Shown here piece after piece: positions 32,795 to 64,000 of a DNA stretch of 64,000 nucleotides. Position numbers and translations under genes: made by a program. The notes below the pieces were generated by a model. It was not told the DNA's origin. It ran no database searches and saw only the letters and a list, made by a program, of their open reading frames with translations. This DNA is from Eledone cirrhosa (Eukaryota). The stretch covers positions 178,808,001 through 178,872,000 of the forward strand of contig OZ024742.1 in the NCBI GenBank assembly GCA_964016885.1, read 5' to 3'. The first letter of the stretch is position 1. Every line of letters starts with the position of its first letter.

Positions 32795-33035
32795 AGAAAA
32801 TCCCAGGAAACCCGCGTATAGGAGAAATACAAAAGATAGTACTAATGGGAACTGCCCATATACTAAGGAAGATTCTGTCAATATAAGTACATCACAAGTC
32901 TAAACACCTAAAGATGCATGTGTGAGTATGTATGTTCTTTCTTGAACATGGCGGACCTTGTTGTCTCTTGAGGTCACTGGTTGTGACTTGGTGATAACTC
33001 GTATGAACATAAAGCAAGATAAATGCAGCTGTAAA
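32795..33035 (+). mobile_element. 3' end of a second R4/Dong-like family
   Basis: KIPGNPRIGEIQKIVLMGTAHILRKILSI* plus UTR, between (AAT)n tracts. Confidence 0.7.
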
Positions 33036-33104
<69 letters not shown>

Positions 33105-33106
<2 letters not shown>

Positions 33107-34806
33107 AGAGTTGACATCAACTGGAGTATCCTTGGGAAGCGTGAAGATCAAGAGAGGTATCTTCCAGGGAGATAGCCTGTCCCCTCTGTTGTTTGTCCTT
33201 GCCCTAATGCCCCTGACCATTATGCTGCGAAAAGTGAGAGCAGGATACAAGTTGGGAAGGGGAGAGCTTACCATCAATCACCTCCTCTTCATGGACGATC
33301 TTAAGCTCTTCGGGAAAAGTGAGAAGGAGTTGGATGTGCTTGTTGACACTGTCCGTATTTTCAGCAGTGATATATGTATGCAGTTTGGTATTGGTAAATG
33401 TGGAGTCATTGTGATGAGGAGGGGTAGGTTGAGCAGAAGTAGCGGGATCCAGATACCAACAGGTGAGATGATAAAGGAAATTGACTCTGAGGAAGGATAC
33501 AAGTATTTGGGCGTTCTGGAGGCTGATGGCATAAAGAACAAAAAAATGAAGGAATTGTTAAGAACTGAATACATTCGGAGAGTAAGGAGCGTATTGAAGT
33601 CACATCTGAACAGCAGAAATGCCATAAGCGCAGTAAATTCCCGAGCTGTGTCTATTATTAGGTACAGTGCGGGAATTCTGAGATGGAATGTTGCTGAACA
33701 AAAAGAAATGGATAGGAAGACTAGGAAGCTATTGACTATCTACAACATGTTCCACAAGAGGAGTGATGTCGATAGACTCTACCTAAGGAGATCTGAGGGT
33801 GGAAGAGGTCTTATCAGCATAGAGGACTGTGTTCAGATGGAGAAAAACAACCTATACAAATACGTGACCTATAGTAAGGAGCCAATGCTCAAAACTGTAC
33901 TGAAGGAGGGGACAGTAGGCCAGGGGATGTCCAAGGAGGAAATAACATCAAGGAGGAAGAGCAGCCTTAAGGGAAAATCCCTTCATAGTACCTTCTTTGA
34001 GAAAACTGAATTTAGAGATCCACAGACATGGAACTGGCTGAGAAGAGGAGACCTCAAAAAGGCTACAGAAGGAATGATAATGGCTGCGCAGGAGCAGGCC
34101 CTCAAAACGAAGTGGTTGAAGCACCATATTTACAAGGAGGAGGCTAGCCCACTGTGCAGGATCTGTGGAGAGAGAGAGGAGACTGTGGCTCACATTGTGT
34201 CCGAGTGTAAACACCTAGCCCAGACCCACTATAAGGGCTGGAGACACGATGTGATGGGCAGGGTGATCCACTGGCACCTGTGCAAAGTAAACAATTTACC
34301 ACATTCTGAGAAATGGTATGAGCATAGGCCGGAGGCGGTGATGGAGAACAATCAGGTGAAGGTGCTGTGGGATTTTAGGATACAGACGGACAAAAAACTG
34401 GAACACAATAGACCTGACCTGGTGGTTGTGGACAAGGAAAAAAGATCGTGTCTGATTGTGGATGTGGCCTGCCCGTTCGACACGAGAGTGCAAGAGAAGG
34501 AGAGGGAGAAAATTAACCGATACCAGGACCTAAAGTGGGAGGTGAAAAGGATTTGGAACTGCCATGAAGTCAAAGTGATCCCGATTGTCATAGGCGCACT
34601 GGGGACTATCTCCAAAAGTTTCCAGGGATGGTTAAAGAAAATCGGCCCCTTCACGCTTTTTGGAACGCTTCAAAAGGCATGCTTGCTTGGAACAGCAAGA
34701 ACCCTCCGATACGTCCTGAATATCTGAGGCTGCAGGTAGTGGCTTGATATTCATTCCAACGGACTTTCCAGTTAACCAACATCAATGACTGAGATTCAAG
34801 GAATAA
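33105..34806 (+). mobile_element. 5'-truncated R4/Dong LINE with an uninterrupted RT-CCHC-RLE frame
   Basis: RGIFQGDSLSPLLF, HLLFMDDLK, YKYLG, CRICGEREETVAHIVSEC and PD-(D/E)xK nuclease. Stop at 34727. Inserted in (AAT)n. Confidence 0.95.
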
Positions 34807-34810
34807 CAAC

Positions 34811-34841
<31 letters not shown>

Positions 34842-34843
<2 letters not shown>

Positions 34844-35155
34844 GAGGAGAGGGAGAAAATTAACCGATACCAGGACTTAAAGTGGGAGGTAAAAAGGATT
34901 TGGAACTGTCAAACTGCCAAAGTCAAAGTGGTCCCGATTGTCATAGGCACACTAGGTACTATCTCAAAGAGTTTCCAAGGATGGTTAAAGAAAATTAGTA
35001 CAGCCCCGCTTTTTGGAACACTTCAAAAGGCATGCTTGTGGGAACAGCAAGGACCTCTCTGACGCGTTCTGAATATCTGAGGCTGCATGTATTGGCTTGA
35101 TATTCATTTCAACAAACTTTCCAGTTAAATAACATCAATGACTGAGACTCAAAGA
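34842..35155 (+). mobile_element. Older diverged R4/Dong 3' fragment
   Basis: Same RLE C-terminus and UTR with indels; ends in (AAT)n. Confidence 0.85.
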
Positions 35156-35170
35156 ATAATAATAATAATA

Positions 35171-35248
35171 ATTGTTTCTACTTTTGGCACAAGGCCAGTA
35201 ATTACCCAGTACATTACTGGTATTTTATTTTATCGACACCGTAAGGAT
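35171..35248 (-). mobile_element. SINE 3' fragment fused to the PLE
   Basis: TTGTTTCTACTTTTGGCACAAGGCC...CGTAAGGAT. Confidence 0.85.
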
Positions 35249-36530
35249 TTTTTGATGAGCACGTGAAGTGATTTTTTTACAGCAAAATTTTGTCCTGATT
35301 TAAATGTATACGTGTTACCTTCAATGAGGTGAGTGCAGGTTCCACAATTAGAGCGACCACATTTTTTGACAGTTGGTTGTGGGTTTGTAGTAGGCAATTT
35401 GGCATTGGTGAGTAATGTTTTCAGTGATTTCGGTTGTCTTTTGCTTTTGATTATTTTGTGTGTTTCAAGGACTTTTTTCATTCTTACGTCTTGTTTCAGT
35501 AGAGGGATGTTGTGAATAGTGTTGTAAGCTTCCGCATTTCTTGGGTTGTGTGTTGAGATATATGATAGAATATTGGACGTACCTTGAATTTGTTTCTGTT
35601 TCCGTAATTCATCAATGCCTATTACTTTAGCCCTTTCTATTCCATTATTTATTAGTAATGGTGGGTACTGTCTTTCGTGTAGAATTTACTTTAATTCTTG
35701 AAGTCTTTTATTTCGCGTTTCATAATTGGAGACAATTGTGCAAATTCTTCTTGCTAGGATAAAATGGATGTTCGTCTTCTTGTGCTTTGGATGGTCGGAG
35801 GTGAATAGCATGTATTGTTTGGAATCTGTTGGTTTGTAATGTATGTCAGTTTCAATATTTGTGTCTTTTTTTAAGATTAAGATGTCCAGAAATGGGAGTT
35901 GGTCTGGGCTGTATTCCATTGTGAATTGGATGTGGTTATTGATGCCGTTTATTAAATTTTTGACACCATTCAGTTGGTCGAGTGTGTGGGGCCAAATAAT
36001 GAGACAATCATCCAAATAGCGTTTCCAATTCTCTGATATATTATGATTTGGACTGTTCATAAATCTGGACTTCTAAGTATGCCATGACTAAGTTGGCATA
36101 AGTCAGAGCTGCTTTTGTACCCATCGCAGTCCCCGATATTTGCTTGTAAGTACTGCCATCGAAATCAAAAAAGTTGTTCTGTAAGATAAATTTTAATCCT
36201 TCGGTGATGAAGCTTTTTTCTATTCTGCCAGGTATCTCATTGGGATATTTCTCTAGCCAGAATCCTATTGCTTGTAGTCCGTATTGGTGTGGGATCGTTG
36301 TGTAGAGATTCACTACATCGAAGGACACAATAATAGTATCGTTGTTGACATGTTTGGGGAGGTGGTTTAAGAGGTCCAGATCGTCTTTTACAAGGCTTGG
36401 TATGTGTTTGAGAATTGGTTTTAGTAGTATGTCTATAACGTTGCTCAGTCTGTGTGTTTCACATTGTGGGCGCGCTACAATTGGTCTTAATTTAAGGTCT
36501 GTGGGGTATTGTGTGTTCACGCAGGCTGAA
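35245..36530 (-). mobile_element. Penelope-like element RT plus Cys-rich linker (GIY-YIG domain lost)
   Basis: LRPIVA, SFDVVNLYT, GTAMGT, RYLDD, LPFLDI, YKPTD...HP, then CGRSNCGTC linker. Frameshifted. Confidence 0.92.
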
Positions 36531-36544
36531 GTGGATTGTTTACA

Positions 36545-37080
36545 ATCACGTGACAGTCATAATTTCATTTATAACCAACAAATTGCATTTAAAAAAAAAA
36601 GCCTTCGTAGGCCACTTTTTTTATTGTCATAAAATTCTCTAAAAGGCTACAAAATTAATTCCCAAATACGGGCGCGAAATTTAATGAACTTGTTCACGTG
36701 ACAGTCATTATTTCATTTATAACCAATCAAATTACATTAAAATAAAAAAAGCCTTCGTGAGCCACTTTTTTTATTGTCATAAAATTCTCTAAAAGGCTAC
36801 AAAATAAATTCCCAAATACGGGCGCGAAATTTAATGAACTTGTTCACGTGACATCCAATAATTTCATTTATAACCAATCAAATTACATAAAAAAAAAGCC
36901 TTCGTGAGCCCCTTTTTTAAGTAAAAAGAATTTCAAACACTGATATATGAAAAAAACAACCTGTGCCCCCCCCCCTTGTTTGAAGAACTTTGTAACGAGA
37001 ACTGGCGCGAAATTTATTATACTTATTGACCAACCAATCAAATTACTTCTCTAAAAACCTGGCGTTTCCATATAAAACAA
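36545..37080 (+). promoter_or_regulatory. 149-bp tandem promoter module of a PLE pLTR (E-box, CCAAT, E2F; TATA)
   Basis: CACGTGAC at 36547, 36696 and 36845; AACCAATCA; GGCGCGAAA three times; TATAAAA at 37071. Confidence 0.65.
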
Positions 37081-37139
37081 GTAACATTCAAAGACCAACT
37101 AGATGTGAGAAACACCACAGACCCTCCATCTCAGCTCTA

Positions 37140-37175
37140 CTTTTGAAAAGCAGAAGAACTGCGAAACCGGTAAAG
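37140..37175 (+). ncRNA. Minimal type I hammerhead, U3-A8 variant (family C)
   Basis: CTT-TTGAAAA-GCAG-AAGAA-CTGC-GAAAC-CG-GTA-AAG; AATAAA downstream; stem I is only about 3 bp. Confidence 0.7.
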
Positions 37176-37237
37176 GAACCAAATAAATATATATATATTT
37201 TTTAAAAATAAGACTCCAGTTGCATTTTCGATTTCAT

Positions 37238-37320
<83 letters not shown>

Positions 37321-37323
<3 letters not shown>

Positions 37324-37661
37324 CGAAGGAAATGTGGTAAGGAACCAGGTGGACCATAACGCACCAAAGTACTCAATACTTAGGGTAGTAGAGTGGGTAA
37401 TAGGAACAAGTTAGACCCCCTACTTCTCCTACCGGCAGGTTTAGCTACCCGTTCCTCCACCAATTTGCCATCACAGATTTACTACTAACTTGTGATGTGA
37501 CCAATGCTGGTGATTACCTCTTTGACCATATATGGAATTACCCCTTGATAAGCTCGGCTATTTAAATACCAGAATAAATTTTCATTCAGTCCAGAATTAG
37601 CCGTCGAAACGGCTTGAGCTCAGCCGTCTTTTAAAAAATTAAAATTGGGGTCTTACTTGTT

Positions 37662-37727: not shown

Positions 37728-38240
37728 ATTAAGTTAAAAATGTACATCCACATATGTATACTGAAATACTAGTATGCATATGAATACACACACGTGTACA
37801 TATGTAGATGTACCGAGTTTTTCACTGGTCACTTTACTGTGAGTGTCCAGCTATTCTGTATGTAAACACACAGACAAACCGGTTTTTAGAGTCATACTGG
37901 TTTTTGAGGAAACACCTTTCCTCTATTCTCCAGAAAGCCAGACAAGGAATATTGGACTAGTTTCGATGTTGTTACATCTCATCAGCAATATTTACCTATC
38001 TTCTGGCCTTTCTAGAGAATCGTAAAAGCACATATCGTTATATGCTTTTTCTATGAAAATTAGTAGTGGGCAGACTAATTTGCATAGAGCATGAGTACGT
38101 ACCGGTTCAACGGAGACGATAAAAACAAATAACGAAACGAAATTAAATTTCGTTTCGTTTGTAACTCACTTTTGTATGACTGACGCTTAAACAATTAAGT
38201 TAAAAATGTACATCCACATATGTATACTGAAATACTAGTA

Positions 38241-38247
<7 letters not shown>
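37727..38247 (-). mobile_element. Partial-tandem pLTR element with 55-bp terminal direct repeats
   Basis: AATTAAGTTAAAAATGTACATCC...GCATAT at 37727 and 38193. Confidence 0.8.
37948..37992 (-). ncRNA. Type I hammerhead ribozyme (canonical, minimal)
   Basis: AATATTG-CTGATGA-GATGT-AACA-ACATC-GAAAC-TA-GTC-CAATATT; all three stems perfect. Confidence 0.92.
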
Positions 38248-38288
<41 letters not shown>

Positions 38289-38291
<3 letters not shown>

Positions 38292-38483
38292 CGAAGGAGA
38301 TGTGGTAAGGAACCAAGTGGACCATAACGCAGTACTCAATACTTAGGGTAGTAGAGTGGGTAATAGGAACGAGTAAGACCCCGACGGCTGAGCTCAAGCC
38401 GTTTCGACGGCTAATTCTGGACGGCTAGTTCCAGAATTAGCCGTCGAAACGGCTTGAGCTCAGCCGTCGGGGTCTTACTCGTT

Positions 38484-38488
<5 letters not shown>
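38289..38488 (-). mobile_element. Family A fold-back element
   Basis: Family A consensus; loop CTGGACGGCTAGTTCCAG. Confidence 0.88.
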
Positions 38489-38544
<56 letters not shown>

Positions 38545-38883
38545 ATATATATATGTATATATATACTCGTAGATACACCTATCACTAACATAACTTTCTC
38601 TCTGATTACTTCGACATCGTTCCTACAGGTGTTAAATAAATACATCATTTTCTAACTGGAGGTCTGTTTCACCTTAAAACCTCACACACATACACAGTCG
38701 CACAAACACACACTCACTCACACACACATGTTTACGCATATACTCATATGTACACACATATACTTATACAATATCTATGATCCTGACCGCCACATGCCAA
38801 CTTTTCACCATCCCATTTACGTCCTTAAATTTAATATCTTCTTTAAACCCCATCATAAAAACTGACACTCATACGCATCCCCG

Positions 38884-62240: not shown

Positions 62241-62789
62241 GTTGTTTCCTCTATATCTTTTTCTCGCTTTCTTGTTTTCACTTTATCAACCTCTCTCTCT
62301 CTCCTTTTCTAGAAGAAACCGACTGTGGCCAGACCTGGAGAGGAGTTGGGCTAGGCTAGGTTTTAAAAAAGCCCAAAAAACGCCATATGTCAACATGGTG
62401 CCCCCCCCCCCCCCCCCCCACGACTTCACCTTATGTTACGGCTCAAAGAAGATGGTAAATAGTAGCTACATTACTATTACTTATTTATTTTATCAAGTTT
62501 GATTAGCATTTCTTTTTTTAAAATTTATTTTTCTTGTTTTATTTTGATTTTTTTCACATTTTATTTTTGTTATCTGTTCTAGTTGTTGTTTGTTTTCTTT
62601 TTGTTTTCCGGTTGGTTCATTTTTACAAAAAAATGGAAATATTTAAAATATCTTTGAAATTGGTTAAAAAAGTTTGTTTCTTCCGGTAATTAGAGATACA
62701 TCCATTGTTCATGCTGCTGTTTTGGGGTTCATTTTGTTTGTGAGTGTTGTTATTATAGTTTAAAGTGTTGGTTGGCTTGCTAGCTATCT

Positions 62790-64000
62790 GGCATAATACG
62801 AAAAGGATCAGGACTCCGACGGCTGAAAACCATCGATGAAGAGATCCTCCTGGAAATCAACAATAAGACTGAAGGCCCCAAGGTAGAGAAGATCTCTAAA
62901 TTATGGAAAGGGGACTGCAACAGAGAAGAATTGAAATCCCTTCAACGCTGGGAAAAAAGTGCCGCTTGGTTCCTAAACTATGAATCGACTTTTCAAACGG
63001 ATTACACCTCCAATAACCCGTTCATAAAAATAGGAAAATCCATAACCGAACCGCACAACAACTTCGCAAACCCACCAGCCACTAACAAAAGAAGGAAGTA
63101 CCACACCGAAGATGAACTTCCCAACCTCGCTACCATAAGAAGGAACAAAAACCCTAGAAGTCATCACTCCCAGAATAACATTTACAACTTTCCCCCTTCA
63201 AGGAGACACCATACCAAATCACTCAACTACTACGCGGATGCCTCATCATCAAACATAGCGAAAAGATACCACCACCATGATAGATGTAACAACTTCCCCG
63301 CTTCAAGGGGACAGCAAGGTAATTTCCATATTCTCAACTCTCGCTTCCACAATACACAACAAACCCACACCACACGATACAACCAACAACGTAGGCCACC
63401 TATAACACCAAAATCCAACATGGCACATAGAAACACACATCCATACTCGCAATACAGGAACACCCCATTCAATCTACAACCACGAACCCGAACCACATTT
63501 TACAACAACAAGGAATATAACAAACACAGGAGACCACTTAACATCAGCAGACAACCCCTCTACCCCAACCATTTTTTAGACACAGCACACAGATACAAGC
63601 AAACAAAATAACACAAGACAGGGAGGAGAAACCGAGAGTAATAAAAAATATCAATCTAACTACTGCAGAACCAACACCCAACCTTATCAACTTACTCTCC
63701 AAAGGTCTTAAATTCACACCGACCCCACTACGTCCTAACTACTATGAAATGAAGGAAGACATCACAAACTTCTGTAGAAAGTTACGACTCAGTGAAGAAG
63801 TATTCTACCAGTACAATCAGGATGAATCATTAGCCAGAAATAGAAGCAACTACACCTCATCAAAAGGTAGGAATAAAATCCTGGACGAATTCTGTGAACA
63901 CTTGCACAGACAAAAACACAAGCCAAACCTCAACAAGAAAGAATGGGAAGAATTAAATAGATTAAAAACCGACAGAACCATTACAATTAAAGAGGCTGAT
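62790..64000 (+). mobile_element. Penelope-like element 5' region: upstream ORF plus RT N-terminus in the -1 frame, running off the window
   Basis: The -1 frame from 63572 is open to the window end: INL...LLSKGLKFTPTP...F.RKLRL...NLNKKEWEELNRLK.DRTITIKEAD (PLE N-terminal motifs preceding DKG). Confidence 0.88.

Follow-up and report, generated by a model that had tools for sequence, protein, structure and literature searches.

The closest described systems are Penelope-like elements, in which the pseudo-LTRs (pLTRs) hold the transcription start, a 5′-UTR intron and a hammerhead motif (PMC2377424, PMC8557442, PMC4209133). In the literature consulted, only the promoter of Drosophila Penelope has been dissected. 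According to the consulted parts of Schostak et al. (2008, PMC2377424), transcription of D. virilis Penelope starts inside an upstream pLTR that arises from partial tandem insertion, a 5′-UTR intron is present, and the promoter is internal and TATA-less, consisting of an initiator and a downstream element. The same account proposed that the 3′ pLTR is able in principle to drive downstream genes. In the pLTR of Adineta vaga Pen2a, a putative TATA box with an initiator-like word after it provides a precedent (Arkhipova et al. 2013, PMC3846280); in the consulted part of that work, however, it is a prediction only, with neither upstream factor sites nor start mapping. The EN+ elements Neptune and Nematis (Craig et al. 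2021, PMC8557442) have a C-terminal GIY-YIG domain after the reverse transcriptase (RT), a CxxxxCxxC linker, pLTRs, an inverted 5′-truncated copy, a tail, (TA)n ends and a hammerhead-like motif.

The element described here resembles Neptune and Nematis in these features, its hammerhead-like motif being a predicted one, and Drosophila Penelope in the predicted place of its start and in its predicted intron. However, upstream of the start it carries a TATA box together with E2F-like, E-box and CCAAT words, which are absent from over half of the sampled copies (55 of 98) and which distinguish it from D. virilis Penelope; nor is such an upstream promoter module described for Neptune and Nematis in the consulted part of PMC8557442. 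Thus the start site, intron and hammerhead in the pLTR and the idea that the 3′ pLTR may drive neighbours were already known (PMC2377424, PMC8557442), whereas the predicted upstream E2F, E-box and CCAAT module appears to be new for a Penelope-like element. We found no published account of it in a search of mostly openly accessible papers.

Identity of the element and of its repeat

Judged by sequence, the repeat is the 3′ UTR and pLTR of a Penelope-like element of the Neptune/Nematis type, with RT and GIY-YIG domains. The initial annotation had placed the module in a retroelement, and indeed an RT and GIY-YIG frame precedes it in the same orientation in other copies; it had been overlooked that the module forms a Penelope-like 3′ pLTR, with a predicted hammerhead and the beginning of a predicted intron after it. 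The family is dispersed, with 3,778 first-look candidates, and the best copies among the 40 scored were 86-92% identical. Full elements have the order pLTR, ATG of a 400-aa ORF1, overlapping 775-aa ORF2, 3′ UTR and pLTR; their tandem period is 4.69 kb, and at head-to-tail junctions ORF2 is followed by the 3′ UTR, the module(s), the TATA box, the hammerhead-like motif and the ORF1 ATG of the next copy. The 775-aa frame of the full-length copy L092 matched two Pfam domains, of which GIY-YIG (E 3.7e-6) passed its cut-off and RVT_1 (E 4.9e-6) did not, and 714 homologues were found, with the same domains among the matches listed. Between RT and endonuclease, ORF2 has a CxxxxCxxC linker (CGRSNCGTC) of the CX2-5CxxC form, a type of motif that marks Neptune and Nematis elements (PMC8557442). 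The placement is one of type, made from motifs and not from a tree with named references. The pLTRs from partial tandems, the inverted 5′-truncated copy and the optional tail are all present (L092-L103 and the geometry of the window).

The start of ORF2, in the -1 frame, shares about 90 nt with the end of ORF1, and in both this family and a sister family described below the overlap contains a T TTT TTA heptamer in the ORF1 frame (approximately 3390-3400 in L092; 63572-63578 in the window). Judged by its class, this heptamer is a likely conserved -1 ribosomal frameshift site.

The window, i.e. the whole 64,000-nucleotide stretch of DNA that was analysed, contains a damaged copy. Its inverted, 5′-truncated and broken ORF2 piece (RT and GIY-YIG), recognized from translations and copy alignment, occupies 35246-36543 on the minus strand and is 93-94% identical to the full-length L092 and L096 in reverse orientation; the three ORF2 fragments in the window gave no Pfam match themselves. 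That a separate element, the module, had entered the ORF was ruled out, since other copies have the module after the ORF and in the same orientation. Besides being inverted, the window copy is truncated at both the 5′ and 3′ ends, and it has lost one CCAAT box as well as some 14-15 bp ahead of the TATA box. The insertion is decaying, its promoter now faces a (TA)n run, and nothing suggests a role of its own.

The tandem at 36546-36918 (plus strand), defined by TRF, copy alignment and module geometry, forms the distal part of the 3′ UTR/pLTR and consists of a 150-bp unit present 2.5 times with 92% matches (TRF), cut at 36546 by the inversion junction. The initial annotation had reported a 149-bp unit in about 2.5-3.5 copies; the repeat is real, but the last E2F and CCAAT pair (37004-37040) is not a fourth full unit and represents a diverged proximal unit without an E-box. 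The words of E2F, E-box and CCAAT type and the TATAAAA at 37071 are located in the sequence as it had claimed. Each unit reads, on the plus strand, E2F-like word, 13 nt, E-box, 19 nt, CCAAT and then GAGCCAC with a run of T. The E2F-like word GGCGCGAAA lies at 36671-36679 (where it is common to the sister family), at 36821-36829 and, as the proximal site at about -97, at 37004-37012; the proximal consensus, TTTCGCGCC on the minus strand, is kept in the sister family. The E-box word CACGTGAC starts at 36547, 36695 and 36845, within the sites TCACGTGAC of unit 1 (36546-36554) and TTCACGTGAC (36693-36702 and 36843-36852, the latter common to the sister family). The CCAAT word AACCAATCA is found at 36721-36729, 36872-36880 and, proximally, 37032-37040, the last being preceded by an E-box in copy L350 but not in most subfamilies; a degraded CCAAT box of unit 1, with one base lost in the window copy, lies at 36573-36582. 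The TATA box TATAAAA (37071-37077) is at -30 from the inferred transcription start, a pyrimidine-A initiator at 37101. The GAGCCAC and T-run element (36759-36772) also stands directly before the TATA box in intact copies of both families, in the place of the 14-15 bp lost from the window copy. As GAGCCACTTTTTTC (36759-36772, and at about -46 in L002 and L269) it is the longest exact word common to L002 and the sister-family promoter, and it adjoins the TATA-like box on its upstream side.

Exact GGCGCGAAA occurs three times in the whole window, always inside the repeat/promoter region. With at most one mismatch allowed there were 6 matches against 2.67 expected, a number reached in 2 of 100 shuffles. 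Since the tandem units are copies of each other and thus not independent, the motifs gain little support from the window by itself.

Copy 5′ ends, hammerhead and intron

The tip 27-mer of the element, whose first base lies 9 nt past the predicted start, is present in the genome in 9,495 exact copies. The first 100 places listed on contig C1, chosen by position and not by 5′ end, yielded 98 distinct copies. Counted from the base that lies 30 nt past the first T of TATA, 55 of them begin at -1 to +9, none at -2 to -19 and 43 further upstream; copies that start beyond +9 cannot enter a sample drawn with the 27-mer, but the empty upstream zone is not created in this way. The 55 copies correspond to 46 loci, with 9 head-to-head pairs. 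In the sister family 10 of 29 copies begin at -1 to +15, one at -6 and none at -7 to -129. At the position of copy starts, contig depth rises about fivefold, from approximately 0.2 to more than 1 million, and loose (TA)n ends are found there; the three contig runs amount to one DNA-like sample, possibly the assembly's own source, and can reveal neither starts nor expression. An additional G in front of +1, which would be a trace of a cap, was seen in only 2 of the 9 copies starting at +1 and was not used as evidence.

The pile-up of 5′ ends 30 nt after the TATA box suggests that reverse transcription ran to the 5′ end of the RNA, so that the simplest reading places the transcription start at 37101. 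The copy ends thus fall where a TATA-type RNA polymerase II promoter would start transcription, at an initiator about 30 nt after TATA. Support for this start comes from the copy ends, and an RNA cut or a stop of the reverse transcriptase could mimic such a pile-up; the predicted hammerhead cut is located about 70 nt downstream of it. In this way, copy 5′ ends may map the start of a retroelement without RNA data.

The predicted minimal hammerhead with a U3-A8 core (37140-37175, plus strand) was read by hand from the alignment. By this hand placement it is composed of UUGAAAA, a 4-bp stem II, GAAA, the palindromic ACCGGU, a cut after GUA and a 3-bp stem I. The U3-A8 variant of the core has been described (PMC4209133). 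No Rfam match was found over the pLTR hammerhead and the module, and the matches to Rfam miRNA and viral UTR families, mostly on (TA)n and palindromes, were below gathering scores.

The predicted 5′-UTR intron begins at the donor G/GTAAAG (37170-37240, plus strand, in the window). Its donor, pyrimidine tract and AG are present in longer copies; the window copy stops before their pyrimidine-rich GTGTAG acceptor. Among 244 local copies 240 were unspliced and the other 4 were not spliced either, and no exact spliced junction was found in the assembly. One contig of run X3 skips 50 nt, GT..AG, from the predicted donor to an earlier AG (L002:2144-2195). It is a possible spliced retrocopy or use of an alternative acceptor, and is absent from the assembly.

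At its 3′ end the window copy meets a (TA)n run (37241-37322, plus strand), the likely insertion target. Among the copies, the junction with (TA)n falls at one of two sites some 60 nt from each other (of 98 copies, 57 were long, 36 short or other and 5 other), which fits the Penelope 'tail' produced by reverse transcription from two internal sites (PMC11167929).

Motifs and spacers within and between families

To compare decay among insertions, we used 123 inserted copies with the whole proximal promoter, not picked by similarity of the module, and excluded 10 subfamily-diagnostic columns. Non-CpG bases deviated from the majority at 0.74% in motifs and 0.96% elsewhere (p=0.33). The motifs thus decay like the spacers in inserted copies, which indicates no visible selection on insertions. 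The four CpG bases of the E2F site deviated at 3.5%, against 1.0% for non-CpG spacer bases, so the retention of CpG-containing motifs put forward in the initial annotation was not borne out; the youth of the family accounts for the CpGs that are still present.

Between families the picture differs. A sister family, found by protein similarity (53-58% ORF2 identity), begins at 62784 of the window, where a second Penelope-like element occupies 62784-64000 and continues in L194; the tip of its pLTR has 9,954 exact 31-mer copies in the genome. Its pLTR has the same order of words as the window promoter. In a motif-blind comparison, the 330 nt upstream of 37101 shared with the sister-family copy L269 exact words of at least 8 nt that add up to 100 nt in 11 words, whereas shuffles shared 20 nt on average and none of 200 reached 100 nt. 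The shared words were led by E2F, E-box, CCAAT and TATA. For L002 with L269 the value was 79 nt (0 of 200 shuffles), and for L002 with L199 it was weaker, 59 nt (reached by 3 of 200). The similarity between the promoters of the two families continues past the TATA box. When four module types from real copies were aligned, 167 of 174 motif positions (96%) and 56 of 156 spacer positions (36%) were identical, in a count that was anchored on the motifs and therefore favours them. The comparison of motif and spacer decay suggested with the initial annotation therefore had a divided outcome: motifs are far better kept than spacers between families, but decay like them among inserted copies.

The gap between the E2F and E-box words is 13 nt in all four module types, although their spacers differ, and that between the E-box and CCAAT words is 7-8 or 19 nt. 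In other module variants the E2F to E-box gap is 4, 11 or 16 nt, thus the geometry is not strict; the distal unit of the young subfamily combines the 16-nt gap with CCAAC. The words themselves vary as well. The distal E2F-type site is GGCGCAAAA in both the young subfamily and the sister family, and the latter has the variants CACATG, GGCGCAAAA, CATAAAA and CCAAC, CACATG and GGCGCAAAA being frequent. Because of these varying words (CACATG, GGCGCAAAA, CCAAC), the factor names used here are predictions.

A more distant outgroup family (45% identity) had no 8-mer in common with the window promoter in the one pLTR examined. The outgroup pLTR at L300 (796-aa frames) contains TATATATAG, a TCAGT initiator and a U3-A8 hammerhead-like core; it lacks all three upstream motifs, and its 3′ UTR is long and (TA/TG)n-rich. 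A protein search for a third close family recovered the first family again.

The module has been duplicated repeatedly with different break points, giving periods of approximately 130, 150, 180 and 340 bp, and of approximately 120 bp in the sister family. The 150-bp tandem was present in 1 of 35 promoter-bearing copies of the unbiased sample and in 3 of 55 of a protein-based sample, and a 32-mer of this form had 178 exact matches. The mean pairwise distance was 10.2% for the 150-bp subfamily (11 copies) and 2.6% for the young subfamily (15 copies, picked by diagnostic words), whose members with intact frames mostly have one distal unit in the copies examined. The tandem amplification stressed in the initial annotation is therefore real, but it is a trait of an older minority subfamily; stacking of units is recurrent and is not needed for success. 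The 5′-UTR monomers of mouse L1 (see PMC9022269, PMC6454616) are likewise tandem promoter units that vary in number and sequence by subfamily; those monomers, however, are internal, at the 5′ end and transcribed from within, whereas the module described here is upstream of the start and in the 3′ UTR.

The E2F and E-box pair with a 13-nt gap and other spacers had 423 matches, and among the 100 of these listed nearly all spacers resemble known modules of the two families. No host-gene donor of the E2F and E-box module was found with the 13-nt gap, as all 8 loci read were element copies. Most of the 100 listed matches belong to a subfamily, seen at L121, L189, L276 and L323-L352, that carries one further module; it is about 60 bp long and reads E2F, 13 nt, E-box, 7 nt, CCAAC. 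The proximal promoter is carried by 35 of the 98 sampled tip copies, i.e. about a third, which extrapolates to some thousands genome-wide.

A putative upstream promoter and its alternatives

The pile-up of copy 5′ ends and the conservation of motifs between families together support the reading that the pLTR, with its E2F-like, E-box, CCAAT and TATA words, provides the next head-to-tail copy with an upstream promoter for RNA polymerase II. We consider this reading probable. The promoter proposed in the initial annotation is thus likely working in active parent elements, given that copy 5′ ends pile up 30 nt after the TATA box and that motifs outlast spacers between families. Host factors would be recruited by the predicted E2F-like, E-box and CCAAT sites, the TATA box would likely set the start at 37101, and the 3′ end of the upstream copy would supply the promoter to the next copy in the tandem. 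The RNA would start at +1, cross both ORFs and the downstream module, and reach into the tip of the second pLTR. Priming near +160 or +220 of the first pLTR may yield the abundant promoterless tips, and priming in the second pLTR may yield promoter-bearing copies like that of the window. Only those parent elements that are active in cells of the germ line or the early embryo would be exposed to selection.

In retroviruses, U3 contains enhancer repeats, and the promoter, situated upstream of the start, is borne on the RNA 3′ end. The promoter of the present element would be copied from the RNA 3′ end in a similar manner, and an upstream, motif-defined promoter in this position would make pseudo-LTRs act as the U3-R of true LTRs. 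The 3′ promoter of HeT-A (as cited in PMC2377424) also precedes the start and forms part of the adjacent copy, at its 3′ end. Both HeT-A and retroviruses, however, differ from the present element in enzymes and integration, and the pLTRs come from tandem insertion and not from strand transfer.

From the preference for E-box flanks we presume factors of the USF/MiT type. The flanks, together with the 10-11 nt gap in three of the four module types, point to USF/MiT-type factors and NF-Y as candidates. A composite of NF-Y with an E-box (USF/MAX) at 10-12 bp, also present in ERV9 LTR12, was found by ChIP in human cells (Dolfini et al. 2016, PMC4889920). The CACGTG-CCAAT gap agrees with it in those three module types, whereas in the window unit it is 21-22 nt, one helical turn more; moreover, two of three short modules have CCAAC, and the sites are predicted here.

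The promoter may in addition be coupled to the cell cycle, with E2F sites that tie transcription to G1/S or to proliferating cells and so give access to replicating germ-line DNA. This possibility would add to the promoter reading, but we regard it as doubtful. E2F-like words are kept in both families, and a conserved consensus site is situated near the start, at about -97 in the window; in human cells NF-Y with E2F1/4 marks DNA-replication and mitotic genes (PMC4889920). However, the same source reports E2F and NF-Y together in genes of other functions as well, with no preferred distance, the young subfamily and the sister family both have GGCGCAAAA at the distal position, and the fixed gap between E2F and E-box words may equally mean a germ-line programme or an invertebrate factor that recognizes a similar word. 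If E2F control were true, it would show a retroelement that times itself to dividing germ cells. A broader and less likely version holds that a U3-like E2F, E-box and NF-Y enhancer evolved in one clade of Penelope-like elements, limits the transcription of that clade to dividing germ-line or embryonic cells, is tuned by gain and loss of tandem units in each subfamily, and has scattered thousands of E2F-responsive outward promoters over the genome. Spread of E2F motifs by transposons, as may have occurred here, is described for MITEs of Brassicaceae (review, PMC7329337); those are plant DNA transposons, and according to the consulted part of the review their E2F motifs had little regulatory effect on adjacent genes.

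It is rather improbable that the true promoter is internal, downstream of +1 and over the intron, with the upstream module limited to enhancing expression or modulating it by tissue, and with no need of the TATA box. Such an arrangement has its model in D. virilis Penelope, whose internal TATA-less promoter is accompanied by upstream sequences that tune expression in the ovary (PMC2377424), and Chlamys-3 is likewise a case (PMC8557442); it would also accommodate the sister family, which has CATAAAA instead of TATAAAA and yet the same place of start. The window, however, has a canonical TATA box exactly at -30, TATA and initiator are found in the outgroup family, and it is the upstream words that are conserved between families, whereas the intron is visibly different by eye. 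The weakest explanation, that the motifs are neutral leftovers of common descent, the tandem a product of template-switch slippage and the pile-up an RNA-processing or reverse-transcriptase stop, may well hold for unit number, given the many local duplications in Penelope elements, the rare and old 150-bp tandem and a young subfamily successful with one unit, and it agrees with the lack of selection on motifs in inserted copies, but as a whole it is very improbable, since motifs are so much better kept than spacers across the four module types, the motif-blind comparison picks the same words, and the pile-up lies 30 nt after TATA, at an initiator-like dinucleotide and well before the predicted hammerhead cut.

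Several other repeats lie close to the window copy. Directly to its left, a 593-aa frame of a non-LTR element (32946-34727, plus strand; RVT_1 and a weak zf-RVT) has an (AAT)n tail and a duplicated 3′ end of 353 bp (repeat at 34498-35172). Fold-back fragments of another repeat family with (TA)n borders are located at 37276-37628 and 38244-38549 and are also found beside other copies. A hammerhead with a canonical core at 37932-38003 on the minus strand (Rfam HH9, 38.9 bits, E 1.4e-7, below the gathering score of 52) is part of another repeat.
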